DNA from: a virus
Lineage: Duplodnaviria; Caudoviricetes
IMG/VR virus record: IMGVR_UViG_3300010883_000022
Location: 1,251-65,250 of that record
Reading direction: 5' to 3' (one strand)
Length of the DNA: 64,000 nucleotides
Shown here: piece by piece, positions 4,854 through 63,389 of the stretch
How the letters are laid out: each line of letters opens with the position of its first letter
Position numbering within the stretch: the stretch's first letter is position 1
Translations under genes and position numbers: made by a program
Notes under the pieces: generated by a model
Database searches by the model: none
Told to the model about the DNA's origin: nothing
Seen by the model: only the letters and a program-made list of their open reading frames with translations

Positions 4854-4921
4854 AAGTAAAACCTCCATGTTTAAAGCACAAATTGCCAAGCCTGCGCCAG
4901 GTTGTCGGTATAAAAACCGGT

Positions 4922-4951
4922 AAAAGGTAGCCGCCTATTGAGACGGCTACC
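4922..4951 (-). terminator. Rho-independent terminator after sheath gene
   Basis: GGTAGCCGTCT-CAAT-AGGCGGCTACC followed by TTTT on minus strand. Confidence 0.65.
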
Positions 4952-4970
4952 CGGCACCAAATAATGATAA

Positions 4971-7694
4971 TTAAACTACCAAGTGAACTTCGATATTGTT
5001 CATCGGGTACGGGATCTCAAGTTCGAGTACAATCACGACACGATCTTTCAATAAGGCGTGCTGCCTTAATTGAGTGATCACGCCATCAATGAGCTGGCCT
5101 CCAAGCGTGTCCGTAAATCCGTTGGCTTTCAAGAAGTCAATTGACGCGGTTACCTCTACAGAGAGAATATCCAACGCAGACGGTGTAACATTGGAACGCC
5201 CAATGTACGGTGAAAGCCGGTTAAGGAACAAGTACGACATCGAGTCTACATTACGAACGACTTGCTCTTCTCTACGGTTCAAGTCAGTCGAATCCGTGGT
5301 CAGCGCATGTCGCGTAAGAATGTTGCCCTCGTCATCTTGGGTAACAATCCAAACGCCACTATTAGCCATAATGTTCAACTGATCCCCGTTAAAGAGGTCC
5401 CGTGAACGAGATGCATCGTCGAAGCCGGATATCTGGATGTTTGTCAGGCCCTGGTGCGGCACGACGCCACTCGAGAGACCCGCCAAAGCTGCGGCCAAGT
5501 AGAACCCGTCCGCCAACTCTCCGCCCTGGTTAATGTTATCCGGCCACACAGCGCGGACCCGACGATTACCCCAAGCGCCTGCATTCAATGCAATTGCTGC
5601 GGCTAGCTCGTCTTTGTCCCGCGTATGGCGGATCTCAACCCGCTCAGCGTCCGTAATCGTTCCGGCATGGGCTGTCGTAAGGATTAAAGAGTCATCGCCG
5701 AGAACGCTATCAACGACAAACTCAGTATAAGTCTCGTTGCCATGCCCGTCTTCGTCGAAGAGATACCGAACGATATCCCCCGGCTCCGTACGGTTCGCTG
5801 CGCTGTCGAGGTCGACATTTGCACTGGTGACTACGAGCTTGGAGTACTGAGTTCCAGCAGTGGCCGGATCATCAATCAGCGTCGCCAAAACTACCGCACT
5901 ATCAGACGAAGTAGCAGCTCCGGCAACTTCAATGGCGTCATCCGCGTCAGCAACGGTCCACATAACACGCCAGCGACCAGCTGTTGCACTGGACTGGCTA
6001 TTTACGTGACCTTCAACCAAGTCCAAGACGGTCTTGTTGTGAGTCAGCGGAACCAGGCCGTACACATCATCGCGACCAACACCAAGAGCCAACGCCTCGG
6101 CCCATTCGTCGTTGTCGCTAGGGTCTGAAACTGCAGTGTACTTAACCCAAGTACCATTGGAGTTGGACAACGCCTTGTAGACGCCCCACTTCAATGGATT
6201 GTCCGGGTCTAATGGCCCGTCCATTCCATCAATGTCTGCAGTATCTTGCAGAGCCGCAATTGCGCCGACCTTGGTCGACAACCATTCACGATACTCCACA
6301 AAAACATCACCCTGCGTGACATCCAGTGCTACCAGATCACCGCCACTATCTACCCAGTCAGCATCATAAGCGTCGATTGCGCTGTTGATGGTGACCTGAG
6401 AAGCGGTTGTGGACCAGTTATCCACACCGGCGGCACTAAGGCGATTAAACGGAACCTCGATGTCCTTCTTGATGGAAAGCCAGAGGTCTACGTTAGTAGC
6501 GGCCGCCAGCGTGGCATTCATTGAATGCGCCATCTCCAGGATATTAAAGTCACCATCTGCCGCAGCAGTAGCTGCAAAGCGGAACTTATCGCCCTTAAAC
6601 AGGCCAGTCGCGTGGTCGAACTCGATAGTAAGCCCGAAGTTTCCAATTGAAACAGGTGTCGCTGTAGCGGACACCGCGCTCGGACCCGAGGCATCGACAC
6701 CGTTGGTGGTTGTCACCTGGATCTTAGCGTCAGTTCCGTATAAAGCACCTTCAACTACCTCAATAATGTAGGTAGTGTCTTTCGTGCCGGTATACGTCCC
6801 AGCAGCCGTGCCAAGGTTGGCCGTGGTAGTCTGGTCAATCGTCCAAGTGAAAACATCCCCAACTTCCAGGTTCTTGTCGCTACCGAACTCAGTAAACGCA
6901 AGCGTGAGCCCGCGCACTCCGACTGCTTTGGACACGCCAGTAAGGGCGGGCACAAAATTAAGGTGGTCGTCGTCACCGGAGCCAGAAACAATGTCCACAA
7001 TAGCTGTGGAAAAGACCGTGCCCGTTGACCCCTGGGTAACGGTAAGGGTGTACGTATCTGTTTGCACACCGGTCTCAAAGATCTTATAGCTACTCTCATC
7101 TACCCCTAAGGTTGACGAGGTGACATTACTACCGCCTGCAGCGCCCGCCGTTGTTGCCGCTCCAGCCGCTGTAGCGACATTAGCAGCATCTTCGGTGGCG
7201 TTTGTCACAATAGATGCGCCAACCTGGGTTGCGAGAACATTCTTAACGTAGGTGTTAAGCGTTTCTCCCGCACCTTTTACTTTGACACGGTCCCCGGCCT
7301 TCACGTCGCGCAAAATCGCAGCCGTTCTGGCGTAGGCACCGTTATCTTTAAAGTTAGTCGCGCTAGACGAAATGCGATTCGCATAACTAGCGACCGGCGC
7401 AACTGTCGCGGCACCTTCAAGCTCCGCATGGAACTGAAGATACGCATCGTCAATAAAGACTTTGACGTAGCTAATGTCTATGACAGACCCCGTATCTTTA
7501 TCCGGCCAATTGTAAGCCGTATTCGAGTCTTTGTCGTAAGCGCCGATATCAATATCTAGTTTCTCATCAGCGTCCGCGTATCGGTGGAGATCGGCGTGTC
7601 CTCCAATAATAAACGCACGTAATGGATTTGTCAGTTCGGCTGGGATCAGGTTGAATTCCTGGAAGACCAGCGCTTGTGGTAATACGTAAGCCAT
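4971..7694 (-). CDS. Contractile tail sheath protein
   Basis: 907 aa; sheath-type C-terminus (REEQVVRNVD...DRVVIVLELEIPYPMNNIEVHL); upstream of tube; long Thr/Ala-rich inserted domains. Confidence 0.85.
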   Translation of the reverse strand: MAYVLPQALVFQEFNLIPAELTNPLRAFIIGGHADLHRYADADEKLDIDIGAYDKDSNTAYNWPDKDTGSVIDISYVKVFIDDAYLQFHAELEGAATVAPVASYANRISSSATNFKDNGAYARTAAILRDVKAGDRVKVKGAGETLNTYVKNVLATQVGASIVTNATEDAANVATAAGAATTAGAAGGSNVTSSTLGVDESSYKIFETGVQTDTYTLTVTQGSTGTVFSTAIVDIVSGSGDDDHLNFVPALTGVSKAVGVRGLTLAFTEFGSDKNLEVGDVFTWTIDQTTTANLGTAAGTYTGTKDTTYIIEVVEGALYGTDAKIQVTTTNGVDASGPSAVSATATPVSIGNFGLTIEFDHATGLFKGDKFRFAATAAADGDFNILEMAHSMNATLAAATNVDLWLSIKKDIEVPFNRLSAAGVDNWSTTASQVTINSAIDAYDADWVDSGGDLVALDVTQGDVFVEYREWLSTKVGAIAALQDTADIDGMDGPLDPDNPLKWGVYKALSNSNGTWVKYTAVSDPSDNDEWAEALALGVGRDDVYGLVPLTHNKTVLDLVEGHVNSQSSATAGRWRVMWTVADADDAIEVAGAATSSDSAVVLATLIDDPATAGTQYSKLVVTSANVDLDSAANRTEPGDIVRYLFDEDGHGNETYTEFVVDSVLGDDSLILTTAHAGTITDAERVEIRHTRDKDELAAAIALNAGAWGNRRVRAVWPDNINQGGELADGFYLAAALAGLSSGVVPHQGLTNIQISGFDDASRSRDLFNGDQLNIMANSGVWIVTQDDEGNILTRHALTTDSTDLNRREEQVVRNVDSMSYLFLNRLSPYIGRSNVTPSALDILSVEVTASIDFLKANGFTDTLGGQLIDGVITQLRQHALLKDRVVIVLELEIPYPMNNIEVHLVV

Positions 7695-7728
7695 TTTTTA
7701 TGCCTCCGTGCTAGCTTAAATTATGTGA

Positions 7729-8355
7729 TCATGGTTCGAACGTTTGTAATACTACACGCTTGAGCTTAGGAGCATGGGGTTTAATCGTCCATGTCTCCTC
7801 GTGGGCGTAACTAATTGTTACTGGAACAACATAATGTGTCACTGATTCCTCTAACCCACTAAGCGGCCCAATTTCGGCTACGGCGAACCGATGTAAGTCG
7901 AGCTCCCGGCGGATGTATGAGGAAAAAGACACCAGGTGCCTGTAAACCTCAGCCGCCAACTTCTCACATTCTGCTCCTGCCCGCGCTAGGCAGAATATCG
8001 TGTGAGAACCAGACATAAACGTGGCATAGTGATCGTATCCATCAGGAGAAGGAATCCCCATGATTTGATCGTTAATTCCACGTCGTTCTACTCGCCACCC
8101 GTTTCGCTTAATAATAAGCGCTGGGCGGGAACCCGCTTGGTCTGGGTTCCACCGAGTAATGCTTTCAATCAGGATAGTACTACTAGCGCCTGACGTCCAA
8201 AGGTAATCTTCAAGACTGCGATCCTCAATTTGATCCTTTTCGGCAAAATGTTCCATGAACAATTGCCTTAAAAACCCCGTCATAAGAAGTGGGCGCATTC
8301 CCAATGAACAAAGAGAGCTTGCGCGCTCAACTCTAACTTCCGGAGATGTCGGCAT
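7729..8355 (-). CDS. Putative tail terminator/neck protein
   Basis: Start MPTSPE after GGAGG; position just upstream of sheath; RPALIIKR...YVVPVTISY pattern. Confidence 0.55.
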   Translation of the reverse strand: MPTSPEVRVERASSLCSLGMRPLLMTGFLRQLFMEHFAEKDQIEDRSLEDYLWTSGASSTILIESITRWNPDQAGSRPALIIKRNGWRVERRGINDQIMGIPSPDGYDHYATFMSGSHTIFCLARAGAECEKLAAEVYRHLVSFSSYIRRELDLHRFAVAEIGPLSGLEESVTHYVVPVTISYAHEETWTIKPHAPKLKRVVLQTFEP

Positions 8356-8644
8356 CCGTGCCTCCGTGAGGAATCTCAGTACTCTTAACGTTACCTGGTT
8401 GCTTAGTAAACCTGACAACATCATCATCAGGTTCATCGTGCAAGGAAACTGTGCTCCTCATACGTATTTTAGGTAACAGGCTCGGCAAGGTGCTTTCTTG
8501 CCCTGGTTTTTTCTGTTTCGGGACCACGGGTTTATTCCGCCGGGGTTCCTGGTGCGGTAATTCCGCTTCTAAATCATCGGGTATCCATGGCATCTTTACA
8601 CCTAGCCTCATCTCTAAGGATACTACGGCATACCGGTTGTTCAC
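8333..8644 (-). CDS. Hypothetical protein
   Basis: Fills the gap in the neck cluster; start uncertain. Confidence 0.45.
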   Translation of the reverse strand: MNNRYAVVSLEMRLGVKMPWIPDDLEAELPHQEPRRNKPVVPKQKKPGQESTLPSLLPKIRMRSTVSLHDEPDDDVVRFTKQPGNVKSTEIPHGGTDADISGS

Positions 8645-8653
8645 AACCTATTT

Positions 8654-9466
8654 TTATGTAATTGTTACTTCATAAATGGGATCGTTAAACGCGGCTGGGC
8701 GTAATTCCACATTTACAATGATAGGAACACCCCGAATCTCTGCTGCATGCTGCACAGAATGTATGAAATAACGTTTATCAGATGTAGCGTCCACCCACAC
8801 ATCCTTCGTGTTTAATTGTGGAAATGCAACTGTGCGCCCAGATATTCTAACATCGTTAATGGTACCACGGTTTTGTAAGTCTGTCTTAATATGGTGTGTT
8901 TCAGGAGCAAGATCCATAAACATAGCGAGCGGACTGTAATAACCACCAACTTTAGATGTGCCCTTACCATCTGTATCAATTGTTTTAACAACCTCGCCAG
9001 TCAACGGATCAATAACTTGATGATCATCAATTGTTGTGCCCTCTTGCCATTTACGCTTTAGAAAAAACCCGTTAGGCGCCGCCTTCTTCTCGAGCCGCAA
9101 AAGTTCTTTTCGAATAATCGACTTAGCAAGCAACCAATCTCGCTGTGATAGCAATCCGTATGTTGCTACAGGCTGAGACAAATATGTACCACCGGACGTG
9201 GTCAGCTTGACCCGATAATGTGTCGTTAATCGCTTACCGTACACACGTTTCGTGCTGTCTACCGCAAAAAATGTGTCCACAATTGCCGCACCCACGTCTG
9301 CCCAATCACCCGCCGTGCCAACACCTGTGGCCCCTACTTGAAGCTGAAATGTATGCGGGGTCGCATCGGTAAAGGTTTTCTGCAGCTCCCAAGATACCCG
9401 GGAACCACCGCCTACGAGATGGTCGACGCTAACACGATTAAAAACTGCATCTCTAGTAGTTGGCAT
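8654..9466 (-). CDS. Putative head closure/neck protein
   Basis: SD GGAGG; C-terminal FPQLNTKDVWVDATSDKRYFIHSV beta-barrel-like segment; synteny. Confidence 0.55.
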   Translation of the reverse strand: MPTTRDAVFNRVSVDHLVGGGSRVSWELQKTFTDATPHTFQLQVGATGVGTAGDWADVGAAIVDTFFAVDSTKRVYGKRLTTHYRVKLTTSGGTYLSQPVATYGLLSQRDWLLAKSIIRKELLRLEKKAAPNGFFLKRKWQEGTTIDDHQVIDPLTGEVVKTIDTDGKGTSKVGGYYSPLAMFMDLAPETHHIKTDLQNRGTINDVRISGRTVAFPQLNTKDVWVDATSDKRYFIHSVQHAAEIRGVPIIVNVELRPAAFNDPIYEVTIT

Positions 9467-9469
9467 ATA

Positions 9470-10327
9470 CTACCCTCCGTAGTTATATGGGGAATCAAGT
9501 CCGCCGTACCCTGCACTTAGATTAAGCGACACCTTCTTTGTGCGTGCAAACTGTTCCCACTCTTGTTTCATCTGCGCAGCTTTTTGTTCATAGTCGTTGG
9601 CTTTGTTCTTATCGTCGATCTGCATCCCGCCTGCGCTGTATTGAAGACGATTACGCCTGTAGTGCTCAGCAGCTATGGAGAATAGGTTTGCGCAAATTGC
9701 GATTAACCAGTGATACCGCCAGGGAAATGTCTGCGATGAATACGTGTTATTCAAAGGCGGCAAGATCTCATTCCAGAAACGCACCGGTAAAGTAATTGCC
9801 GCTGCAATCTCACTCATATCAAAGTCAACCGTGTCTAGTAATTCGTTCTCTTGCGAGTAATCACGTAAGAATAAACGAATCTCAGCTAGTGATGGCGGCC
9901 CTATAGAGTCGCTTAAAGACCCGAATAGACCCTCATCAACAACAACCCACAGCGTATTAGAAAATAGCATGCGGGCGCTGGCATCCAGGACGGCAAACTC
10001 GCCTATGTAAATACCAGGGGTATCCTTAACGGCGGCCGGTATTTCACAGCGAATCTCGCCGTCTGCTGCTGTTGTAACCGTACAGTCTGCCGTAGGCACA
10101 CTTGCCGCGCTGGTGATTGTCACCGCATCTTTGAACTTAGCTTTAACAGTGGTCGATGAGTAATCAGCGTGGCTGAGATCAACCGGGTTTCCGGCATTAT
10201 CGTGCAGCGTAACGTCAGCAAAAGCATACTGACCTGATTTAGTAGCAAGCACACGGCGCTTCAGCGGAACTGCAGCACCGCCAAAGTGATTAACGCCTCC
10301 TTGATCTGCGATATCGTTAAGGGCCAT
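9470..10327 (-). CDS. Putative head-tail adaptor with N-terminal Ig/BppU-like domain
   Basis: DNAGNPVDLS...TPGIYIGEF domain, then helical EIRLFLRD...YSAGGMQIDDKNK adaptor-like domain. Confidence 0.55.
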   Translation of the reverse strand: MALNDIADQGGVNHFGGAAVPLKRRVLATKSGQYAFADVTLHDNAGNPVDLSHADYSSTTVKAKFKDAVTITSAASVPTADCTVTTAADGEIRCEIPAAVKDTPGIYIGEFAVLDASARMLFSNTLWVVVDEGLFGSLSDSIGPPSLAEIRLFLRDYSQENELLDTVDFDMSEIAAAITLPVRFWNEILPPLNNTYSSQTFPWRYHWLIAICANLFSIAAEHYRRNRLQYSAGGMQIDDKNKANDYEQKAAQMKQEWEQFARTKKVSLNLSAGYGGLDSPYNYGG

Positions 10328-10346
10328 CCGTGGTCCTCCTTAGGTA

Positions 10347-11687
10347 TTAGCGAAGAAGCGGCGATCCCGCAATTCTTCGTTTGTCCTTAATAGCTATTAA
10401 ATCTGTGTTTGAATACAACATATTTGAATTGGCGTGCTGGGCATCGGGGTGCTCATCCCAACGGCGAGCTGTGTGAAAACAGGCAGTGTAGCCCTTTTCT
10501 CCAACAGGGGCCGCTGTGTCTGCGTTCTCAAAAAGCAAAAAGGAATTGCTGTTCCAAAAACTTTTGTACGTAGGTACCTGAAAAGCCGCGCGCCCGTCTG
10601 TACTAGGCACAGACAAAGATAACCAACCCCCCGGCGCTAACTTTTCCCACACTGTATTAATCCAAGAAAGCACATCTTCTCCCGCCATATATTGAAGCAC
10701 ATCTTTTGCGCGTACCCAACCTATTGAATTATCGACCAGGTCCTTCACATCTAAATAATGTGACACCCCCTCCGATGCCCTATTAGCAACAACTAGTACT
10801 GGCAACCCGCGCCTTCGACAATCTTCATTAACGATAGCATGTGTTCTTTGATGTGCTATATCTCCTTCAACTTTTTGTATCTCCTTATTCATCAGCGAAA
10901 TGCTTCTACTACCACTCCACTGACGATAGAGATACAGGCATTTATCAATATGATGAAAATCAACCCCGGCTAAGTATGTTCTGCTTACTAAATCAAAGTC
11001 GTCACATACGCAGTACTTGGGATCGTGCCCACCAACTTTATTGTACGCTTCTTTACTCCATACACGCACGTGATTTGGCGTTGTAAATATTCTGTGTAAG
11101 GAATCTGCAGTCGGCGGGAACGCCCGGCTCGCTAAAAAATCCGCCCCGTTAAGAACTACGGGGTAGCTCTCCCACCCATTGTCTTCTGGGTAAGTAATAG
11201 ACGACCCATCTTCTCTGAAGGACGCAAAGTTTGAATACAAGAACCCGGCGCCAGTCTTTTTGTACGCCTTAACAACTTCAAAAAGCGCATCAGTTGATAG
11301 TATATCATCGTGGTCGAGCTCAACATATAACTGACCACTGCATTGATAAGCGGCAAACTTTTTCAAACTACCGATACTGACATCCGCGCCGGCATCGATA
11401 GGAAAATATGTCACCTTTACACGGGAATCTTTACGAATTACCGCCGGTATATCCGTAATCTTTTCTAGCGCCCCGTTGGGAACAAGCACCCACTCCCAAT
11501 TAGAATACACCTGGGCACGCAGTGACTCGTAGCATTCTTTCAGGTGTACGATGTTATCCGTAGGTGTAAAGACGCTCACAAGCAAATCTTTCTTCTTGCT
11601 TGTAGGAGTTCTTTTCTCTGTCGCCTTCCTGGCTGGTTTCTTTGGCGCCCTCCTGGCTACCTTCTTCTTCTTTGGGGTAGCTGCCAC
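10347..11687 (-). CDS. GT2 glycosyltransferase fused to a degenerate SAM-methyltransferase-like domain
   Basis: VSVFTPT, ELDHDD, VGGHD...CDDFDL; C-terminal LAPGGWLSLSVP; GTG start at 11687 follows AGGAG; K/A/P-rich N-tail. Confidence 0.8.
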   Translation of the reverse strand: MAATPKKKKVARRAPKKPARKATEKRTPTSKKKDLLVSVFTPTDNIVHLKECYESLRAQVYSNWEWVLVPNGALEKITDIPAVIRKDSRVKVTYFPIDAGADVSIGSLKKFAAYQCSGQLYVELDHDDILSTDALFEVVKAYKKTGAGFLYSNFASFREDGSSITYPEDNGWESYPVVLNGADFLASRAFPPTADSLHRIFTTPNHVRVWSKEAYNKVGGHDPKYCVCDDFDLVSRTYLAGVDFHHIDKCLYLYRQWSGSRSISLMNKEIQKVEGDIAHQRTHAIVNEDCRRRGLPVLVVANRASEGVSHYLDVKDLVDNSIGWVRAKDVLQYMAGEDVLSWINTVWEKLAPGGWLSLSVPSTDGRAAFQVPTYKSFWNSNSFLLFENADTAAPVGEKGYTACFHTARRWDEHPDAQHANSNMLYSNTDLIAIKDKRRIAGSPLLR

Positions 11688-11704
11688 TCTCTTTGCTCCT
11701 ATAT

Positions 11705-11744
11705 AAAAAACAGGCTGGTACACACGTAGTATACCAGCCTGTTT
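11705..11744 (-). terminator. Rho-independent terminator after head genes
   Basis: 13-bp perfect inverted repeat AAACAGGCTGGTA/TACCAGCCTGTTT with a T-run on minus strand. Confidence 0.7.
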
Positions 11745-11771
11745 AGAAATTCAAGTATCTCAACACCGCGA

Positions 11772-12152
11772 CTAGGCATGCCCAGTAACTGTGTCGTACG
11801 CACCCCAATCAAGATCTGCGACAGCATACGACCCGGCGGCGGGAGCAACTGTCTTAACGTCATCATTAGATGCGTCGAGGGTAACCTGCAACGGATCAGT
11901 AATGATCACGAGATACGGATCCCCACCTGTCCCGACTCCGGTAATTGGGTCGATGGGCTCCTGAAGAGCGGCGTTCAGCGCCTTCTCTTTACGAGGATTG
12001 CCCGCAACGAGTGACTTCAAATCACCAACGAACGTATAGTATTCGTCCTTTGCCAGAGACACGCCGTGCGGCCCCAAGAAACCAAAAAAGATATCTTCAT
12101 CAAGACCCGAAGAGTTTCGGACTTTGGTACGAAGTGATAAAAGATCTGCCAT
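11772..12152 (-). CDS. Hypothetical virion protein
   Basis: SD GGAGGT; in head module. Confidence 0.7.
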   Translation of the reverse strand: MADLLSLRTKVRNSSGLDEDIFFGFLGPHGVSLAKDEYYTFVGDLKSLVAGNPRKEKALNAALQEPIDPITGVGTGGDPYLVIITDPLQVTLDASNDDVKTVAPAAGSYAVADLDWGAYDTVTGHA

Positions 12153-12168
12153 AGTATATTACCTCCGA

Positions 12169-12570
12169 TTACTGTTGCTGGATCTGGTCAACCAATATGT
12201 TGGCCGCGACAGCATCCTGATATGTTAACGACGCTTCCTTCAAAAGAGGATCGCTTGCCATTTCATGAATGGCATTCTGCAGAGAAGAATCTGGCTGTGC
12301 ATTTTCTCCATAAACAGCACGATCCAACTCTTGGCCGGCCGCGTCTAAAAATTCATTCCGTTGCCCAGCAGACTTGGTTTGTTCCTGCCTCTGTGCAACT
12401 CTCAGCTTATCGCTCAAGTCCAACAGTTGCTGAGCTTCTTGCTCATTTTGCGGAACAACACCATAGTCTTCGGCCAGCTTATTAAAAAAGACCGGCGCAT
12501 GAACATTATCGAACAGGACGCTTTGGGCCTGGTCGGGTGTCAATTCCGGCACTTGCTGACTTTGCGACAT
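12169..12570 (-). CDS. Hypothetical head-associated protein with K-x-A motifs
   Basis: SD GGGAG; NKLA, TKSA, LKEA. Confidence 0.7.
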   Translation of the reverse strand: MSQSQQVPELTPDQAQSVLFDNVHAPVFFNKLAEDYGVVPQNEQEAQQLLDLSDKLRVAQRQEQTKSAGQRNEFLDAAGQELDRAVYGENAQPDSSLQNAIHEMASDPLLKEASLTYQDAVAANILVDQIQQQ

Positions 12571-12610
12571 AGTGAGTATCTCCCAAATTTGTAACGCATA
12601 ACAGGATTAA

Positions 12611-12634
12611 GCGGAGCCCTTGATTGGGCTCCGC
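12611..12634 (-). terminator. GC-rich hairpin after the major capsid gene (terminator or stabiliser)
   Basis: GCGGAGCCC-6nt-GGGCTCCGC; weak U-tract. Confidence 0.55.
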
Positions 12635-12646
12635 CATCCCTGTTTC

Positions 12647-13579
12647 TTACGTGAAGTTAGCGCGGGCAAGACCACTGGTGTGACCAATGGTTCCGCCTGC
12701 AGTTTCATAGGCGAAGAACTCAAGCATGTAAGCTTCCCGCTTGATGTACATAGTCGTATCCTCAAGCAAGTAGTTCTTACCAATGAACTTGGGATCCGCG
12801 AACTGGTAAATGGTGTCGTCAGCAACAAAACCGGTTCCGCGCTTGATCGTGATGATCCAGCGACAGTTCAGCAGTTCAGCTTCCGACCAACCATTCTTCA
12901 GGGTGTCCTGGCTGAAATCACCACCAGCCTCGTCACGACCCCACTTCATGATCTCTTTGATCGTCACGTTGTTGACCAAGATCGTGTTAACTTCCAGGTG
13001 ACTGGGAGTTGACGGCATGATCTTCAACGATTCGACAACCGTGTCACGAGTGATACCGCCAACAATATTCTTATGCTGGACGACACCTGACGTGGGAGTT
13101 GCGACACCCACAGTACCGATCGCTGTATTAACAGCGGCGAGGAACTTAGAGTCCTCTTCGGCCAACATGTCCTTGATAGCGTTGTCGCTAAGGACCTGCC
13201 GAATGTCCATGACGTAGGTACGCAGTTCATCAACATCTTTGGTGAAGCGCGGGGTCACGATACGATCGAACATAACCCGGTAGCGCGGTCCGCGGATGTA
13301 CAAGTTAATCGGCAAGGTTGCAAACGGGATCGAGATGGCCGCGGGGCTATCAGGTTCCTTGTCCACAATCTTGACCGGCTTGTCGGTATCGACCTGACGA
13401 TCCAGTTCGTCGTTGCTAATCTGCAACGGCGGAAGGATGCGGCGGTAAAACCCGTCTTCCCGCATCTTCGTACGAGTAAAATCATTCACCGCATCAATAG
13501 CGGTTTTCTCCATTCCTGGAGTCGAAAGCTGCTCAAACAGAGTCTCGTTGAGCAGTTGAGCTTCTGACTTATTAGTCAT
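12647..13579 (-). CDS. Major capsid protein (HK97 fold, inferred)
   Basis: 310 aa; follows protease, scaffold and decoration genes; strong RBS and downstream hairpin; short leader ending EKTA. Confidence 0.8.
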   Translation of the reverse strand: MTNKSEAQLLNETLFEQLSTPGMEKTAIDAVNDFTRTKMREDGFYRRILPPLQISNDELDRQVDTDKPVKIVDKEPDSPAAISIPFATLPINLYIRGPRYRVMFDRIVTPRFTKDVDELRTYVMDIRQVLSDNAIKDMLAEEDSKFLAAVNTAIGTVGVATPTSGVVQHKNIVGGITRDTVVESLKIMPSTPSHLEVNTILVNNVTIKEIMKWGRDEAGGDFSQDTLKNGWSEAELLNCRWIITIKRGTGFVADDTIYQFADPKFIGKNYLLEDTTMYIKREAYMLEFFAYETAGGTIGHTSGLARANFT

Positions 13580-14233
13580 GGTTTATTAACCTCCGTGTTC
13601 AATTTCATTTTAAAAGTAACATGCTCAACAGGGAGCTTAGCTTTGTCCCGGAAGATACACAGGCCAGAATCGCAGTACGCTAATGCCATGTGAGTTCGTG
13701 TTCGTACCAGTAGAAACAACACCGCAAACCGCCTGGTCAGTCCCAGTTGCGCTTGTTGAATCAAGTTCCCACGGCACCGACAACGCAGTTCCAGCATCAT
13801 CCTCGTTATTGAGGAACCCACCAATAGTCGCACTAGCGTTAGATACCGCAGCGCCAAGCAAATTGCCAGGAACATACGTCTGGGCAATGAACTCAGACGA
13901 TTCCAGTTCGTACGCGCCAGTAGCAACCAAACCGGACATTGCGCCCGTAGGAGCAACCGCGGTCCAGTAGTCACCGCCAGGATTAGCGACATCAGAATCG
14001 TCACTGCTATTCAGCAGGAAGATTGCCATACCAGTATTGCTGACGCCCGACTCATATTCGCCGACACTATTAAGATGAACAACACGACCCTGTTCGTACG
14101 GGTCAACGGTCACGTTAGCAGAAAGTTTAGCTGAATGATCAAGCGCGGCTTCGTGAAACCAGCCCTTGCACGCATCCAACGTGTGATCAAACATTTGACT
14201 AGGATTAACCATGGTTTATTAACCTCCGTGTTC
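13577..14233 (-). repeat. Identical 24-nt translation initiation region at 13577-13600 and 14210-14233
   Basis: GAACACGGAGGTTAATAAACCATG precedes both the decoration and capsid genes. Confidence 0.95.
13637..14212 (-). CDS. Capsid decoration/cement protein
   Basis: Immediately upstream of MCP with identical RBS; beta-rich small protein. Confidence 0.6.
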   Translation of the reverse strand: MVNPSQMFDHTLDACKGWFHEAALDHSAKLSANVTVDPYEQGRVVHLNSVGEYESGVSNTGMAIFLLNSSDDSDVANPGGDYWTAVAPTGAMSGLVATGAYELESSEFIAQTYVPGNLLGAAVSNASATIGGFLNNEDDAGTALSVPWELDSTSATGTDQAVCGVVSTGTNTNSHGISVLRFWPVYLPGQS

Positions 14234-14267
14234 GGATTTTTAATTTCGGAATAAAGTGGCCACCGCA

Positions 14268-14669
14268 TTAGTAGCCTAAAAGGGCCTCGCGATATCGACG
14301 GTCGGACTCTTTTTCGTTAGAAGTCGGAACGCCTGCAAACGGGCTGGTAAGGCTGTCATATGCGGCAGACTTAACAGTACCCGTCGGAGTACCCAACTGG
14401 CCGGCTTCCGCACCTATGCGGTGGTCGGCGACTTTCTCAAGGATTTCTAGCGCCTTGATCGGATCCCGGAGCATATCAGCCGCTGCTGACTTTTCATGCT
14501 CGTCAATTCGTTCATTACGCGCCAGCGCGTCAACTACAGCAGGGATTAACTCAGCGTACTTCTGCTGCACGGCCTGCTTCTCAGCTAGGACCGTTTCTGC
14601 TTTATCAAGCGCAGCAGAAGACCAAGCAATCTGCTCGATGACCTTCTGTTGAAGGGTTTTATTGGACAT
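14268..14669 (-). CDS. Helical scaffold-like protein
   Basis: Start MSNKTL after GGAGG; EKQA, EKSA, EKVA, VKSA. Confidence 0.65.
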   Translation of the reverse strand: MSNKTLQQKVIEQIAWSSAALDKAETVLAEKQAVQQKYAELIPAVVDALARNERIDEHEKSAAADMLRDPIKALEILEKVADHRIGAEAGQLGTPTGTVKSAAYDSLTSPFAGVPTSNEKESDRRYREALLGY

Positions 14670-14706
14670 AATTGTCATCCTCCGTGTGATCAATGTTAAT
14701 GCTTAC

Positions 14707-16053
14707 TCACCCAACAAGCTCGAGTACATGAGCTTTCATTAGGTCTCGAATTTTTCTTTCACGGTCATTTGTAGCTTCCTTAAACTGAAACTTTCCAGAC
14801 CGTTTAAACGACGTCAATGCTGAAGCCAACTTAGCGCCCTCTGCACCGGCTGCCCCCAATTCCTCACCCGGAACACCGGATTCCTGCAAAGCCATTGCTA
14901 GCTGCGCTAACAACTCTTCATCAGAAACAGGCTCTGGACCAGATTCAACGAGTTGCTGAATAGCTTCTGCAATCTCAGCGTCACCGACTTGGTCGCCTCC
15001 GCCAAGTCCCCCGCCGAGTTCTCCGCCAAGTCCCCCGCCAAGTTCTCCGCCGAGCTCTTCGCCGAGTCCTCCGCCAAGTTCTCCGCCAAGTCCCCCGCCA
15101 AGTTCTTCGCCGAGTCCTCCGCCGCCTTCGCCGGCCATCTGAGCAAGCAGTGCAGCTTCGTCACCACCTTCTTCCATGCCGGACGATTCGTCGCCGAACC
15201 CATCGTGATCTTCACCTTCAGCTTCACCGCCAAAAGCAGGATCTTCAAGGGGATGCTCGCCAATCTTTTCAGCTTCATGCGCCAACGTATGCAGATAACT
15301 TCCCACCAAATCCGCATCGTATGATGCATCTTTGATCGTCTGTTCAATGGTAGCTGCCGATCGCTCTTCTTCGGACATCTTTTCCATTCCAAGAACAGAA
15401 GCCAACTGGTACCCCGCGTCAGCAGCTTGCTGCGCTGCGGGAGCTACTGCAGCCTGCTTTACGGCAGGGGGCGCCACTTGCTGCTGATACTGGGGAGCTT
15501 CAACTAGCGGCGCCTGGGCTTTTTTTTGAATGTGTACCTCGCCAAAACCATAACCATTTGCGAAGTCAGCCAAAATATCGTTGCCTAGATTCAAGGCAGC
15601 TGTTTTAGCTTGCCAGAAATTCGCGCCTGTGCACGCGCTTTCCAATGATCCAAACTTTTCACCATCTTTAGTGTCAGCAGGATGCGCTGTACCCGGATCA
15701 TCTTTGTCACCCTTAAAGTCGTTCTCGACCGAGGGGTCTTCTCCGGTGGCGCTTTGCTGCGTGCCCATATTGAGCTGCCGGTCATCTTGAGCCGGTCCCG
15801 CATCGCCTTCGCTAAGGTCGTCTGGTGATTTACCGGGAATGTCATTTTTGACATCAGCTGAATTCTCAGCAGACCGGGCCCCTTCCGAGGCATCAGCAGT
15901 ACTGTCGTCTACTTTAGCTGACGGGTGCGAAGACTCTCCTGCGTACCCACCAGCTTCCGTATTAGCTGCTGCTGTTTTTTCAGCGGCAACTTCTTTCATG
16001 AAATCGTTCAACTGCTCAAAATATTGAGCGGTTTGGACTGAAGAACTGGTCAT
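14707..16053 (-). CDS. Acidic scaffold/core protein
   Basis: Between protease and capsid; D/E/G rich; EKTA, VKQA, EKMS, AKLA. Confidence 0.6.
   Translation of the reverse strand: MTSSSVQTAQYFEQLNDFMKEVAAEKTAAANTEAGGYAGESSHPSAKVDDSTADASEGARSAENSADVKNDIPGKSPDDLSEGDAGPAQDDRQLNMGTQQSATGEDPSVENDFKGDKDDPGTAHPADTKDGEKFGSLESACTGANFWQAKTAALNLGNDILADFANGYGFGEVHIQKKAQAPLVEAPQYQQQVAPPAVKQAAVAPAAQQAADAGYQLASVLGMEKMSEEERSAATIEQTIKDASYDADLVGSYLHTLAHEAEKIGEHPLEDPAFGGEAEGEDHDGFGDESSGMEEGGDEAALLAQMAGEGGGGLGEELGGGLGGELGGGLGEELGGELGGGLGGELGGGLGGGDQVGDAEIAEAIQQLVESGPEPVSDEELLAQLAMALQESGVPGEELGAAGAEGAKLASALTSFKRSGKFQFKEATNDRERKIRDLMKAHVLELVG
14995..15125 (-). repeat. Coding 12-nt tandem repeat (GGGL/GEEL/GGEL)
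   Basis: GGGLGEELGGGLGGELGGGLGEELGGELGGGLGGELGGGLGG in the translation. Confidence 0.9.
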
Positions 16054-16100
16054 ATTTAGTCACTCCTTTGACGGCAAATTGCTCGTGTCCTGTGCTATAC

Positions 16101-52007: not shown

Positions 52008-52031
52008 GAGCACCTCCCTGTGCATATAGAC

Positions 52032-53264: not shown

Positions 53265-53290
53265 AGTCTTCCCTGACTAGTACAACTGCG

Positions 53291-58987: not shown

Positions 58988-59401
58988 CTAGGGCCACTCC
59001 ACGATTCCTAACGTTGACAACCACGGCAACATGGCCGTCCAGTACAAGAGTGTACTAGTAATCAGAAAGTAGTGCCAATAACGCCTCTTCCAGTTCAAGA
59101 AATACAGAAACAAAAGCGGGTAAATACACAGCCTACTTATCCAAAGAGACATGTAGATACCAAAGTACTTAATACAAAGGCTCATAGGCAGGAACGTTTC
59201 GCGCTGCCAATCATTTCCAATGTATTGCCTCGTAAGCTGCATATCGAGAGCGTGTATCACTACAAGTAGAAACACAAATAATAGCGAAATAGTTTTTGAT
59301 GGTCGGAAATTGTCATCCATGACAGAACCCGCGGTTGGAATAGGTCTAGCACACTCCCGATCTGGCGCGTCGTAATAACGCACCATCTCTTTCGTAACCA
59401 T
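58988..59401 (-). CDS. Multi-TM membrane protein (DUF5658-like)
   Basis: Three hydrophobic helices, LD..LT...E..P pattern. Confidence 0.55.
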   Translation of the reverse strand: MVTKEMVRYYDAPDRECARPIPTAGSVMDDNFRPSKTISLLFVFLLVVIHALDMQLTRQYIGNDWQRETFLPMSLCIKYFGIYMSLWISRLCIYPLLFLYFLNWKRRYWHYFLITSTLLYWTAMLPWLSTLGIVEWP

Positions 59402-59424
59402 TCACAGCGTCCTCCTTGACCCTG

Positions 59425-59766
59425 CTAGTGAACAAAAAGAAAAGGAATATAACTACAAAGAACGACTATCTGCACAATGATCAATGCCCATATTACGATG
59501 CCCAAGTTCTTGTAACGGCGCGCTCGAATCGCCGCGCAAATAAGCAGCGTGAGCGCGGTTCCAAATGTCTTGAAACCTACAAGAAGAGCAACACCGCCCC
59601 CATCCAGGTTAATGAGGTACTTGGCCATTGGATTCAACTCTACAGGACCTAGAGCGAATCCGGCACGCGCAGACATGTAGCTATCAAACGAGGAAATACC
59701 TGCAACGAGCACCATTGCAAGCCAAAAGGGGAACGCTTTCTGGAATAACTTAGACATTACTGGCAT
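59425..59766 (-). CDS. Multi-TM membrane protein (DUF5658-like)
   Basis: FDSYMS...ELNPMAKYLI, three TM helices. Confidence 0.6.
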   Translation of the reverse strand: MPVMSKLFQKAFPFWLAMVLVAGISSFDSYMSARAGFALGPVELNPMAKYLINLDGGGVALLVGFKTFGTALTLLICAAIRARRYKNLGIVIWALIIVQIVVLCSYIPFLFVH

Positions 59767-59800
59767 CCTTGCCCCGAGGCAGCGTCCTTGCCGCCTACGA

Positions 59801-60157
59801 TTAAGTGTCTGTATCTACATCATCAGTTATCTCTTCCTCAAGTATTGCTTTTTCATACCACCGGTAGACACGCCCGTAAGCGGTCTGCCACGCTGTTCCA
59901 TGGTGTGCTGTTTCGCAGAACCAGGACAGTACATGCGCGTACTCATGAAGTAGCACATGTACGTCCCGCTCTGCTCCATTGCTTTTACGGACAATAATAA
60001 CGAAGCGAGGATTAGGTCCGTCCTCTATGTACTGGCAGGAACCATGGGAGCTGTATCCCCTTTTTAATCGTACGTGTACCGTATGACCTGTGGGTAAATC
60101 TTCCCGTAGTCTCTTAGATACTTCGTAGAAAAACGCATATTTGGGATCTCGTGGCAT
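59801..60157 (-). CDS. Small HExxH zinc metallopeptidase-like protein
   Basis: LLHEYAH...HHGTAW. Confidence 0.75.
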   Translation of the reverse strand: MPRDPKYAFFYEVSKRLREDLPTGHTVHVRLKRGYSSHGSCQYIEDGPNPRFVIIVRKSNGAERDVHVLLHEYAHVLSWFCETAHHGTAWQTAYGRVYRWYEKAILEEEITDDVDTDT

Positions 60158-60192
60158 CCTTGCCTCCTGTGATAACCCACTACACTACTCCG

Positions 60193-60353: not shown

Positions 60354-60602
60354 TTACTCCTTAGGACTACGAGACGATTTATCGAGCTGCTTCTCCAAAC
60401 GCTGCATAATCGCAGTGTTCGCAGAGATCACCTCCGTACAATTAGCAACTAACTCCTTTAACGTAGATGTGTAATCTTCTTCCAGCAAAGAAATGCGCTC
60501 GCTCATACGCGTTTCACGCTTCCACCCCTGCCAAGTAAAAAACACGACAAGAGCAACCATGATCCCGAACTCACGCAGAACCTCCATAAATGCTATATCC
60601 AT
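60354..60602 (-). CDS. TM plus coiled-coil protein (BhlA/holin-like architecture)
   Basis: EFGIMVALVVFFTW followed by heptad-rich tail. Confidence 0.55.
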   Translation of the reverse strand: MDIAFMEVLREFGIMVALVVFFTWQGWKRETRMSERISLLEEDYTSTLKELVANCTEVISANTAIMQRLEKQLDKSSRSPKE

Positions 60603-60906
60603 ATGTCGCTCTCCTACGCTTCCTTGCGATGATAAATACCCAAACCCCTCGGATACCCCTCCCCAAGGTCCATTATGAATGAAGGGCTACTCCATTCAAC
60701 CTGCGAAGGCATTCTAATGCCACAACCCCCGCTCTCCTCCCGCCGAACAGTCTTAGCTAACGACGGTTTCCCGAGCACGTAAGCCGCATCCTGCGAAGTC
60801 CGTGCTCCCTAACCTGGTGGTGACTCACCAAACCTGGGTATCTAAATTCTACCTTTTCGATCCACGAGACGGAATTATAAGGCCAAAGAGTGCGCCATTA
60901 CACAGG

Positions 60907-61134: not shown

Positions 61135-61962
61135 TCAACGATACTCTGGGTGCCCGTCTGAGGAAAACTCAGAACGTATGTCACATCCGGAACTTGTAAA
61201 TTGTAATGCAGCGCCCGTCTTTAACGTGTGTGCCATCGCAGAAAAGCTGCTGAACTCACTTCCAATAATATGATCTGTGCGCGCAAGCAAGTACAAATCT
61301 GCAAGTGCCTTTTGCATAGACTCCTTCGAATGCCATTCGTAAGGATTTTGTTGGTGGTGAAATGCGCGTCCCGGAAAATGCTCTGCAAGCAACGACACAA
61401 CCCGCTCCTCCTCAGCAGATACAAACACCTCTGCCTGCGGAAATCGCTGGAAATACGCTGAGAGATTATCGATAAAGCTGTCAACTGATGAACGCTTACT
61501 CGTTACCGGGTGGGCCCGTATGGTGCGTATAGACACGCCGACAATCTGCTCTGCTTCGTCAATGGTTGGTAACAAGTTATCTATTAAAGCCTGCACAGGT
61601 TCGCTTGGGGTAAACTGCTTGGCGTACTGCCCAATACCCTCTATCAATGCTGTGCAGAAAAAGAAATACGAAGATACCTTTACGCGGTGCGCTTCTCCCG
61701 GAGACTCCTCCCACGGCACAGTCAAAGGCCCCAATGCGTGCCAATCTTCTGCAGAAACTTGCGCCCAATTATTGGACCACAAATCACTAAACGATGCTTG
61801 CGGGCTTAAGAACCCCCCTGAAAACTTAGCAGTACCCTTCTCAGGCGGCCAACAAACTACAAGGCGCCGATCGTCCCGCTGACATATAGCCAACGCAGAG
61901 CAAAGTGCGCGCCACCTGTTACATAGCCCGGCATGCGCATAAACCCACAGCTCTCGTTGCAT
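61135..61962 (-). CDS. Fucosyltransferase-like (NodZ/GT-B) glycosyltransferase
   Basis: AGLCNR, VGVSIR, ALADLYLLARTDHIIGSEFSSFS. Confidence 0.8.
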   Translation of the reverse strand: MQRELWVYAHAGLCNRWRALCSALAICQRDDRRLVVCWPPEKGTAKFSGGFLSPQASFSDLWSNNWAQVSAEDWHALGPLTVPWEESPGEAHRVKVSSYFFFCTALIEGIGQYAKQFTPSEPVQALIDNLLPTIDEAEQIVGVSIRTIRAHPVTSKRSSVDSFIDNLSAYFQRFPQAEVFVSAEEERVVSLLAEHFPGRAFHHQQNPYEWHSKESMQKALADLYLLARTDHIIGSEFSSFSAMAHTLKTGAALQFTSSGCDIRSEFSSDGHPEYR

Positions 61963-62549
61963 TAGATATCCTTGGGATCCTTCCTACTCTCTTCAACAGA
62001 TTTGCGCGACACCCTGTTCATAAGGTACAGCTCGTTAGAAAGCGTCATCATACGAGCAAAAGCATCAGCATCTGCCGCCTCCATGAAACACATATTATGC
62101 GGTAACACATCCACGTTAGACTGGCCGCGTAGAACTGACCCCGGCGCATCCTCCATATGGTGCACCACCATACCCGTATTTACAGCACGCCGCTCAGTTT
62201 TTCCATCCACCCCCGCGTAAGGGCCTGGGCCATAGATGCTCCAGAATATGTCTATCTCGTCTGGAGGTGCGCCTGGAGGCCAATAACAAATAGGCGCTGC
62301 AACATATGCCGTAGGATCCCCGTCGAACCTGGTCTGGCGCTCTACGTGCACTGCCGACAGTATCTGCATATGTACCTGCTTGTAATTCTTCGGTGTGCAA
62401 ACCTGCCGAAGATCACAAATCAGATCCAATAATGTATCACCTTCGTGCTGCATCCGTTCAGCCCCCGGTGTAAGAGAGAATGGTGTTATATCCATATACC
62501 TATTATACAGCCCATATCGTTCCTGCTCGTAGGACAGACCCGGGCCCAC
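61962..62549 (-). CDS. Hypothetical protein
   Basis: 195 aa; TAATG overlap downstream; start uncertain. Confidence 0.65.
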   Translation of the reverse strand: MGPGLSYEQERYGLYNRYMDITPFSLTPGAERMQHEGDTLLDLICDLRQVCTPKNYKQVHMQILSAVHVERQTRFDGDPTAYVAAPICYWPPGAPPDEIDIFWSIYGPGPYAGVDGKTERRAVNTGMVVHHMEDAPGSVLRGQSNVDVLPHNMCFMEAADADAFARMMTLSNELYLMNRVSRKSVEESRKDPKDI

Positions 62550-62842: not shown

Positions 62843-62872
62843 TGTACTGCTCCTTTTCTTGGGACATAAAAA

Positions 62873-62949
62873 AACGACGGTGAGGGTTTGAACCCCACGA
62901 CCTTTGTGTTCTTGTGATTACAATGCTCTCTCTTAATGCTACTTTCGTT
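62873..62949 (-). pseudogene. Degenerate tRNA / tRNA-like element
   Basis: 77 nt; T-arm TGGGG-TTCAAAC-CCTCA, GTAGC...AGAGC D-arm remnant, AGGTC variable loop, partial acceptor stem; no canonical anticodon loop. Confidence 0.6.
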
Positions 62950-62991
62950 CTTAATATATAGTGACGCATTTATGCCGTTTGTTTAGTGCAT

Positions 62992-63022
62992 AAAAAAAGC
63001 GCCACCCTATGACAGGTGACGC
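62992..63022 (-). terminator. Rho-independent terminator downstream of the structured region
   Basis: GCGTCACC...GGTGGCGC followed by T7. Confidence 0.8.
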
Positions 63023-63049
63023 CTTGTTATGCATAACAAACTGTTAAAT

Positions 63050-63389
63050 GCGGACTAGATTAATGCAGTCTGCCCGTGTCACGATTCGTGGAAGAAGGAA
63101 GGAAAACCACAAACCATATTCGCGGCGTCGACTTGGCGCTCGATCGGTTGGGTAGGAGTGCTACCCCGGTAAAGCTAAAACCCGCGCGCATTAATCTGGG
63201 ACCACAGGCACTTCCGGGTGATTACTCTGAGAAAGGGTTAAGCAAAGTAATCGTGGTCCGCAGGAAGCTAAACGGAAAAAACCGGTCGTGGCGTACCGGG
63301 ACATCCGTGTCCCTCCCTGGATTCGGGAGTGTAACTTATAGCTCACGAACCCTTGTGCGCTCTAAGTGCCAAACTCCCCACTTGTCCGC
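63050..63389 (-). ncRNA. Candidate ~340-nt structured ncRNA, family unassigned
   Basis: End-closing helix, several nested 5-10 bp helices, two 7-bp cross-domain pairings, downstream terminator. Confidence 0.65.

Follow-up and report, generated by a model that had tools for sequence, protein, structure and literature searches.

GGA hairpins at the translation starts of the window

Many genes on IMG/VR virus record IMGVR_UViG_3300010883_000022 start beside a short hairpin that displays a GGA triplet in its loop, and an earlier note, made from the letters alone, had read 21 such hairpins as a candidate phage-wide regulon of the translational regulator CsrA/RsmA. Are these hairpins a selected feature of the virus, and if so, what might bind them? 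The DNA analyzed here, called the window throughout, comprises 64,000 nucleotides, i.e., bases 1251 to 65250 of the 65,250-bp record, for which CheckV estimates a completeness of about 31%; all of its credible genes lie on the minus strand, and 74 genes were called. The hairpins exist, they are specific in geometry and strand, they are enriched at starts, and at genes of the capsid module they are kept by compensatory change. Comparison of sequences further leads us to regard them as probable CsrA-family binding sites, placed where translation of virion mRNAs and of other mRNAs of the phage begins, an explanation in which we include activation or stabilization of the mRNA instead of repression.

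CsrA dimers are described as binding short hairpins that expose ANGGA; overlap of such a site with the Shine-Dalgarno (SD) sequence blocks ribosome loading, and decoy RNAs or competing targets relieve the block (PMC7366521). The RsmA ligands reported in PMC4066749 (RsmZ-2 and PA1300 oligonucleotides) have an AAGGAU loop, and CACGGAUG ending in the start codon. Because the recurrent word of the window, CANGGANG, amounts to a C-G closing pair around the hexaloop ANGGAN, we applied one geometry throughout: around each GGA, read as the hexaloop NNGGAN, contiguous Watson-Crick pairs were counted outward from i-3/i+4, with a threshold of at least three pairs. Gene starts came from a simple caller of our own that rewards an SD and ignores the arms of the hairpin. 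All 21 strings listed in the earlier note are present on the minus strand at the coordinates that it gave. By the uniform rule, 15 of them have at least three pairs (14 at gene starts and one in non-coding sequence), four fall to two pairs (10324, 39669, 7702 and 32190), and two are imperfect (14671-14694 and 26422). Six further sites came to light at 16059-16072, 33233-33244, 50781-50794, 59778-59795, 62487-62498 and 45366-45377.

The signal at starts is strong by several measures. CANGGANG occurs 49 times on the coding strand versus 12 times on the antisense strand, and 22 of the 49 copies lie within -30 to 0 of a called start. Its 5' C is the sole consensus letter that an ordinary AAGGAGG SD does not supply, and among NANGGANG words this base is C in 22 of 31 near starts versus 27 of 86 elsewhere (Fisher p=2e-4). 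Hairpins of at least three pairs surround 16 of 86 GGAs in the zone from -22 to -2, compared with 11 of 1045 sense-strand GGAs inside genes (odds ratio [OR] 21.5, p=2e-12; 65-kb contig). A first pass (73 genes, zone -22 to -3) had given 12 of 78 versus 24 of 1156 GGAs with a hairpin; swapping the 3' arms among the sites of that pass left a mean of 1.5 hairpins, and the observed 12 were reached in 0 of 10,000 permutations. The earlier note had named a lack of excess of the 5' CA and of stems over SD composition as an outcome that would speak against its proposal; the 5' C, the C-G closing pair and the flanking stems all turn out to be enriched.

The geometry of the loop is equally particular. 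Among 25 GGA loop layouts compared, only the NN-GGA-N hexaloop and its two same-centre neighbours rise above background, with 16 sites in the window and 22 in a relative of the window phage (G002) for the NN-GGA-N layout, versus 0 to 6 for unrelated layouts. Of the 16 window hairpins, 15 begin their loop with A, as against 32 of 70 hairpin-less SDs, and 14 are closed by a C-G pair. The sixth loop base is variable, with 9 of the 16 hairpins (at least three pairs) reading GGAU, GGAA or GGAC and not GGAG. The window hairpins overlap the SD or the start codon, as is required of a CsrA site that blocks the ribosome, and the RNA element matches the structural definition of a CsrA site, namely, a GGA exposed in the loop of a short hairpin.

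Two registers of the GGA can be told apart. Twelve of the 16 sites place it at -21 to -8, where an SD belongs, and four place it at -2, as GGAUG, with a separate, ordinary SD GGA 8 to 12 nt further upstream. The start-codon form CA.GGATG is found at 6 of 74 starts but at only 1 of 406 internal in-frame ATGs (p=7e-5), and the 12-mer GGCAAGGATGCC occurs twice (59762 and 60153), before unrelated proteins. In the SD register, AAC-ACGGAG-GTT stands at 13588-13599 on the SD of the major capsid gene (12647-13579), a hit of the covariance model described below (E 0.004), and again at 14221-14232 on the SD of open reading frame (ORF) 13637-14212, just upstream of the capsid gene, which encodes 191 aa with no function assigned; both sites are on the minus strand. 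The capsid assignment comes from comparison with phage Arash, whose annotated capsid protein shares 30% identity with the product of 12647-13579, and the 191-aa protein is not a paralogue of the latter. The 24 nt before the ATG are identical in these two unrelated genes (13576-13604 and 14209-14237, minus strand; GAACACGGAGGTTAATAAACC followed by ATG), which points to copying of an expression cassette. No hairpin is stronger than GGGAC-ACGGAT-GTCCC (63298-63313, minus strand), which lies in a non-coding stretch. Taken together, the occurrence of one element at both the SD and the start-codon register, the identical cassettes before unrelated proteins and the strong non-coding hairpin argue that the selected feature is the GGA hexaloop on its stem and not SD function as such.

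As a separate observation on the cassette, the second 24-nt copy in a 98%-identical contig (L003) differs by one arm base.

Conservation and covariation in the phage family

The window is a fragment from a member of a large uncultured jumbo phage family. The named phages closest to it are Salmonella phage Arash and Vibrio phages D69, D181 and D148, at about 31% protein identity, and a nucleotide search with 9 kb of the window against isolated phages gave no match. Its putative capsid protein has 114 IMG/VR relatives at 67 to 98% identity, many of them on contigs of 190 to 235 kb, and half or more of the probe words taken from the capsid region occur in each of six seawater or marine runs.

To follow the hairpins through this family, orthologous starts were placed by tblastn in 80 loci of about 114 members, and whole genomes were used in four cases. 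Hairpins of at least three pairs are found in 35 of 60 distinct leaders of the capsid gene (31 with at least four pairs), in 36 of 62 of the gene just upstream (ORF 13637-14212) and in 22 of 42 of the gene for a 907-aa protein, there mostly as GGC-A[CT]GGAG-GCC. They are less frequent before the orthologues of ORF 14707-16053 (12 of 54) and ORF 14268-14669 (7 of 48), and neighbouring genes carry them in 0 of 40, 0 of 46, 3 of 63, 4 of 61 and 2 of 58 distinct leaders. Across the orthologues the loop is kept as A[C/U/A]GGAG and the arms vary in pairs, e.g., AAC/GTT, GGAAC/GTTCC, GAC/GTC, CAC/GTG, TTTC/GAAA, GATC/GATC, GCAC/GTGC and TTGTC/GACAA.

This covariation was quantified on all distinct anchored 22-mers, hairpin-less ones included (n=50 for the capsid gene and n=59 for the upstream gene); the alignment A1 leaves out 10 of the 80 capsid orthologues, in which the start call put no GGA in the zone. 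Paired cells make up 78.0% (capsid gene) and 76.6% (upstream gene), compared with 59.0% and 59.7% in shuffles, and cells changed on both sides number 48 versus 16.3 and 54 versus 22.3, counts not reached in any of 500 shuffles. Kinship among sequences can produce an excess over shuffles in the absence of structure; controls with a slid partner address this, and sliding the 3' partner by 1 to 3 columns lowers the covariation score from 0.45-0.47 to 0.07-0.23. A covariance model built from the sites of the relatives gives 16 hits in the window at E<=10, of which 14 are on the coding strand, and its best nine all fall on called starts.

These results bear directly on whether the pattern has any function at the RNA level. 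It could stem from composition or chance, or the palindromes could act in the DNA, as operators for a dimeric DNA-binding protein. We consider such an origin very improbable, and the arm-swap, covariation and loop-layout results largely refute it. Nulls that swap arms and keep loop and composition never reach the observed number in 10,000 trials, the 49 coding-strand copies of the consensus word face 12 antisense ones, and the sites sit at fixed distances from start codons. The arms co-vary without conservation of their sequence; an operator would call for the reverse. What this origin retains in its favor is that the starts were called by our own SD-rewarding script and that a sense-strand test on the unpaired cells, with 31 G-U versus 26 A-C combinations, favors neither strand.

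Two side observations concern start contexts in the orthologues. Orthologues of window gene 16101-17543 (L006-L013 type loci) have neither an SD nor a hairpin but a conserved start context, ...ATGAGCATGATC, with a double ATG; they closely trail the preceding gene, an arrangement that looks like translational coupling, and their leaders form an internal negative for the hairpin. The ATG inside AACATGGAGGTT can be mistaken for the start of a capsid orthologue, and the tblastn-anchored starts were used instead.

A CsrA protein in the relatives

If the hairpins are CsrA sites, the protein should have a source. The earlier note had left it as host- or phage-encoded. Among the relatives, a CsrA domain scores above the Pfam cut-off in all five complete genomes searched first and in 19 of 21 others with a completeness of at least 90%, i.e., in 24 of 26, which turns the idea of a host- or phage-encoded CsrA into a concrete candidate. 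Over all records searched, 35 of 55 pass the cut-off (5 of 5 and 30 of 50), with 39.5 to 89.8 bits versus a cut-off of 27; csrA-less fragments among the 55 cannot be counted against the hypothesis. Among complete relatives, the one nearest in its capsid protein (77% identity; L010, the same as G001) has a CsrA domain at 50.9 bits. The CsrA-domain proteins of the relatives are 55 to 110 aa long; for one of them, an end-to-end alignment with solved CsrA/RsmE structures covers 54 residues and is free of gaps (E 2e-13). R44 and E46 (aligned positions) are invariant in all 35 distinct CsrA sequences of the relatives, and R44 of Escherichia coli CsrA is described as essential for recognizing the first G of GGA (PMC7366521). 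By sequence, these proteins belong to PF02599, and the arginine used for RNA binding is intact in them. The csrA leaders themselves carry the same hairpin in 6 of 34 distinct cases, e.g., ATCGA-AAGGAG-TCGAT, which hints at autoregulation in part of the family.

Some relatives depart from the single-gene arrangement. Tandem CsrAs, with two PF02599 matches in one frame and a linker between them, occur in L085 (G003:C1, around 11.3-11.8 kb; about 163 aa) and in L107 (G039; about 142 aa) and might be single-chain pseudo-dimers with two unlike RNA-binding faces. Two separate csrA genes each are found in several other relatives (G034, G038 and G040-G043).

The hairpin signature is missing from three phages used as controls. 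Arash, a distant relative, has no csrA, and its host has a CsrA of its own; 0 of 17 annotated starts around the Arash capsid gene carry the hairpin element, and genome-wide the counts are 6 of 208 versus 35 of 2470 (p=0.13), with five of the six stems made of A and T only. Two unrelated isolated phages that do encode CsrA, phi297 and Vibrio phage 219E41.2, give counts of 0 of 36 and 2 of 55, without enrichment at their own ribosome-binding sites. The signature is therefore a trait of the window's family, neither of phages generally nor of any phage with csrA.

We favor the following mechanism. Each site presents, on a stem of 3 to 6 bp that is usually closed by C-G, an A-N-G-G-A-N hexaloop. 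Its GGA either forms the core of the SD, around position -13, or lies next to the start codon (GGAUG, -2). Gripped by a CsrA dimer, this loop would no longer expose the SD or the AUG, and the 30S subunit would be blocked until the protein is titrated away or outcompeted, and relief might set in as target mRNAs accumulate or a decoy appears. The protein would normally be encoded by the phage in the window's family, and a host protein may contribute. In the window phage, the predicted targets are the capsid-module mRNAs and those of the RNA polymerase beta' C-terminal subunit, an HNH-like and a protease-like protein and several small ORFs. From sequence comparison, we infer CsrA binding, repression, timing, joint gating and a csrA gene in the unseen two thirds of the window phage's genome.

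It is tempting to speculate further that the family owns a complete Csr circuit, in which a phage CsrA (tandem in some members) times or doses virion synthesis through ANGGAN hairpins, represses its own mRNA and is relieved by titration. We hold this extended version to be possible but somewhat doubtful. Relief would then come from the flood of late transcripts or from a small decoy RNA such as the element formed by the 63298-63313 hairpin and its terminator, and in the window phage RNA polymerase and accessory mRNAs would be targets as well.

A different protein might read the same loops, either another RNA-binding translational repressor of phage or host or an endoribonuclease that cuts SDs. 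T4 RegB, for instance, cleaves GGAG in SDs. There is room for such a factor, given that 15 of 20 scanned window proteins have no PHROG match and that two complete relatives possess the hairpins and no CsrA. On the other hand, the variable sixth base, with GGAU, GGAA or GGAC in 9 of the 16 hairpins, fits CsrA better than a GGAG-specific nuclease, and a protein of exactly the expected specificity is encoded by 24 of the 26 near-complete relatives, so that we rate a different factor as improbable.

Evidence that weighs against CsrA binding

Several observations count against the reading of the hairpins as CsrA sites. The first is that the 65-kb contig, about 31% of a genome, holds no csrA by Pfam or by a profile of phage CsrAs, in agreement with the earlier note, which had seen none. 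The search with the PF02599 model that it had proposed thus came back empty for the contig itself and positive for the near-complete relatives. In relatives, tens of kilobases separate csrA from the capsid gene, so that its lack in a fragment of 65 kb is no surprise. G036 and G046 are complete, with terminal repeats, and have no detectable CsrA: in six-frame translations of these two and of the window contig, matches to a profile made from 35 phage CsrAs are no better than E 0.26. Both keep hairpins at capsid-module genes, with weaker genome-wide enrichment (OR 2.6 and 2.7). Among relatives with csrA, G002 reaches an OR of 7.4 and G027 one of 2.9, the latter not higher than the csrA-less pair. 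A clean split in hairpin load between genomes with and without csrA was accordingly not seen, in a set of four genomes that is too small for a decision. The hairpins of the csrA-less relatives could be served by a host CsrA or could have a CsrA-independent function. Likewise, FliW, the partner-switch protein, has no domain match in any of five complete relatives.

The second group of observations concerns the sites themselves. Two or more sites, bridged by one dimer, are typical of high-affinity CsrA targets, and single-site targets exist. In the window, 1 of 18 leaders with hairpins of at least three Watson-Crick pairs has two of them (GGAs 21 nt apart), and one other does so only when a single G-U pair is tolerated (GGAs 19 nt apart). 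The undecided count of G-U versus A-C combinations given above belongs here as well. Finally, the "phage-wide" reach that the earlier note had proposed is not seen in distant relatives, where the element is conserved on a few capsid-module genes. It sits there on three or four virion genes that are probably very highly expressed, and neighbours have it in 0 of 40, 0 of 46 and 3 of 63 leaders. Start-codon-register sites are present in 0 of 15 and 1 of 17 distinct leaders of distant orthologues (30 to 45% identity), whose N termini cannot be placed reliably; the 0 of 15 are the leaders of the ORF 9470-10327 orthologues, with uncertain starts, and each complete relative has only single examples of this register. 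Restriction to abundant virion genes also fits a hairpin that boosts translation or protects the mRNA.

This last point leads to the most serious competitor, a hairpin that works without any protein: the SD or AUG would be held in a small apical loop, the leader would be kept free of long-range structure or protected from nucleases, the most abundant virion proteins would be translated at a very high rate, and the likeness to CsrA sites would be a by-product. Such a device would explain the concentration of the element on the capsid gene (35 of 60), its upstream neighbour (36 of 62) and the 907-aa protein (22 of 42) and its absence from neighbours, its persistence in the two complete csrA-less relatives and the small number of leaders with two sites; moreover, the closing G belongs to GGAGG, so that C-G closure could come from the SD alone. 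It does not readily account for the same hexaloop where the GGA is not an SD, i.e., in the GGAUG register with its separate SD and at the non-coding site, nor for the preference for A as first loop base (15 of 16 versus 32 of 70 ordinary SDs), which a purely structural device has no need of. Only one of 25 loop layouts is enriched, Arash and the two other phages make no use of the hairpin, and the family that uses it is the family that carries csrA. On these grounds we think a protein-independent hairpin unlikely, and CsrA binding remains the explanation that we prefer.

Relation to known systems

As an arrangement of RNA and protein, the candidate sites resemble RsmE/RsmA-hcnA and CsrA-glgC repression in Gammaproteobacteria, described as a short stem with an ANGGAN loop that overlaps the SD and a small CsrA dimer with an essential arginine (PMC7366521). 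They differ in that the targets are viral (virion, RNA polymerase and accessory genes), that the regulator is encoded by the virus in the relatives, and that the sites are predicted from sequence. Most leaders here have a single strong site, no control of the GacS/GacA type is evident, and Rfam recognizes no sponge RNA. In Bacillus subtilis, CsrA of the hag-CsrA-FliW system binds the mRNA that encodes the main structural protein, by abundance, of a large assembly, at a hairpin on its SD. This would be an attractive analogy for the capsid gene, with the difference that FliW was found in none of the five complete relatives.

Genes for CsrA have been reported on mobile elements before. Phage csrA was catalogued in 30 phages (Sobrero and Valverde 2020, PMC7366521), and our own search found homologues in 83 isolated-phage records; PTXU04 gp28 is one phage csrA (Adler et al. 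2025, PMC11879866), and RsmQ is a plasmid-borne CsrA homologue (PMC9928087). In the one functional test found, knockdown of a phage csrA is reported to give smaller plaques only, and the authors say that its role had not been tested before (PMC11879866). The likeness lies in mobile elements that carry CsrA homologues; those reports list genes or propose action on the host, whereas here conserved cis-targets are found on the phage's own genes. Full-text literature searches, with most subscription journals and supplements outside their scope, returned no paper that places CsrA-type sites at the ribosome-binding sites of the phage itself. Phage translational operators as such are well established: the MS2 coat protein on the replicase hairpin and T4 RegA are phage proteins that bind the ribosome-binding site or start element of other phage genes and set their timing or dosage. 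Their protein families and RNA motifs are unrelated to those considered here, where one bacterial-type regulator would serve many genes.

CsrA is among the best-understood bacterial translational regulators, and genes for it are scattered through phage genomes. Pairing a phage csrA with conserved, co-varying candidate targets on the phage's own capsid and other mRNAs replaces the vague idea that the gene "manipulates the host" with a specific hypothesis that can be tested at the bench with hairpins of about 16 nt and a protein of about 60 to 70 aa. The virus appears to own a translational control circuit so far known only from bacteria. If this holds true, a borrowed bacterial regulator would join sigma factors and phage RNA polymerases in scheduling the late genes of large phages, a bacterial global regulator and its cis-regulon would be a standing part of a viral developmental program, and the sequence signature could be used to find such regulons in metagenomic viruses.

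Individual hairpins and their genes

All sites listed in the following lie on the minus strand. The best covariance-model hit of the window (21.1 bits, E 0.003) is AAAC-ATGGAG-GTTT at 4859-4872, on the SD of ORF 4371-4853. The added site GTCA-AAGGAG-TGAC (16059-16072) covers the SD of ORF 14707-16053 (448 aa), and GC-ACGGAG-GC (7702-7711), on the SD of the gene for the 907-aa protein (ORF 4971-7694), has a stem of only 2 bp. A bulged, imperfect hairpin around ACGGAG (14671-14694) sits on the SD of ORF 14268-14669 and is hit by the covariance model at 10.5 bits and E 3.6. GGC-ACGGAT-GCC (8351-8362) contains the start codon of ORF 7729-8355 in its loop and 3' arm, and a second CACGGAGG directly upstream (8361-8368) is the SD of this ORF.

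Further start-codon-register hairpins are AAC-ACGGAT-GTT (31186-31197), over the start of the gene for the RNA polymerase beta' C-terminal subunit (29316-31190); TTC-AAGGAT-GAA (50761-50772), over that of ORF 49782-50765, which has a weak PHROG match to a protease; and GGC-AAGGAT-GCC (60153-60164), over that of ORF 59801-60157. Two sites allow alternative starts: TGC-AAGGAT-GCA (41647-41658) lies in the initiation region of ORF 40908-41642/41651, which begins at the ATG of the motif or at an in-frame ATG 9 nt downstream, and another copy of GGC-AAGGAT-GCC (59762-59773) lies in that of ORF 59425-59757/59766. Two leaders hold a second site. In front of ORF 49782-50765, the SD lies between the GGA of the start-codon hairpin and that of the added hairpin TAAC-ATGGAA-GTTA (50781-50794), which is 21 nt further upstream. 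In front of ORF 59425-59757/59766, the added hairpin GGCGGC-AAGGAC-GCTGCC (59778-59795; six pairs including one G-U) has its GGA 19 nt upstream of the other.

Elsewhere, hairpins fall on or near the SD. TCC-ACGGAC-GGA (29228-29239) is immediately upstream of and overlaps the SD of ORF 26840-29218 (792 aa), and the added site GGT-TAGGAG-ACC (33233-33244), with U instead of A as first loop base, is on the SD of ORF 32451-33227. GCAC-AGGGAG-GTGC (52010-52023) is on the SD of the 41-aa ORF 51882-52007, and GTC-AAGGAG-GAC (59409-59420) is on that of ORF 58988-59401. CGC-AAGGAA-GCG (60617-60628) lies upstream of the SD of ORF 60354-60602, at a distance of 21 nt from the start codon. TAGTC-AGGGAA-GACTA (53264-53279) stands directly before the start of ORF 52764-53264; with 5 bp, it is the longest of the SD-proximal hairpins. 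Its gene resembles HNH/homing endonucleases (PHROG E 2e-8 to 2e-12) and stands among replication and RNA polymerase genes.

The weak sites comprise CC-ACGGAT-GG (10324-10333) over the start of ORF 9470-10327 and GC-ACGGAT-GC (39669-39678) over that of ORF 39190-39672, both of 2 bp; GC-AAGGAA-GC (32190-32199), also of 2 bp, upstream of ORF 31605-32177, which resembles a DNA polymerase exonuclease; and TGGC-ATGGAT-GTTA (26420-26433), with one Watson-Crick pair and G-U pairs, upstream of ORF 25576-26406. In two more added sites the start codon occupies loop positions 1 to 3, namely, TAT-ATGGAT-ATA (62487-62498) for ORF 61962-62495 and GTA-ATGGAT-TAC (45366-45377) for ORF 44787-45374.

The non-coding stretch that holds the strongest hairpin spans 559 nt (62843-63401) and contains three terminator-like stems, each followed by a T run, near 63275, 62995 and 62870; one such stem with its T run comes directly after the 63298-63313 hairpin. 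The stem near 62870 resembles a tRNA T-arm, without a tRNA call by ARAGORN or a family in Rfam, and neither the ARAGORN tRNA scan nor Rfam at the gathering score found anything in the window as a whole. Nowhere else in the contig do three GGA hairpins cluster as they do here, at about 63215-63320; one site is strong, the others are weak or overlapping, and two of the three overlap each other. By a rough estimate, such a cluster is not improbable by chance. The stretch folds no better than shuffles (z -1.36), a further point against the CsrA reading. A sponge small RNA of the CsrB or RsmY/Z type was rejected as a description of this stretch, with no Rfam family, one strong site and a fold like that of shuffles.

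Among the genes with hairpins, the RNA polymerase has an architecture of its own. The enzyme is multisubunit and is encoded in two proteins of 1484 aa (33239-37693, minus strand) and 624 aa (29316-31190, minus strand). The larger has the beta domains Rpb2_3 and Rpb2_6 followed by the N-terminal beta' domains Rpb1_1 and Rpb1_2, and the smaller has Rpb1_5, the C-terminal part of beta'. By its domains, this is an unusual polymerase with beta fused to the front of a split beta'. Phage Arash has the same architecture in gp206 and gp216, both annotated as beta subunit. The hairpin genes could not be sorted into early and late classes in the PHROG scan of 20 window proteins, in which 15 had no match.

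Transcripts of the capsid module may be present in seawater. Three metatranscriptome libraries contain contigs that match it without mismatches, and one 835-nt contig (13108-13942, 0 mismatches) spans the capsid leader and its hairpin. Contigs from RNA libraries carry no strand, ends or level and may arise from DNA carry-over, and they bear, weakly, on the presence of the leader only. Several bins of 4001-24000 are uncovered by them (e.g., 8670-11337 and 17341-19341), and a DNA run covers 30 of 30 bins, a contrast that counts as no finding. Over the same region, contigs of the best DNA run (X1) differ from the window at 11912-11980, where 67 nt are replaced, and at 20028-20077, where there is a back-joint of 50 nt, and these local variants indicate that related strains co-occur in the same water.

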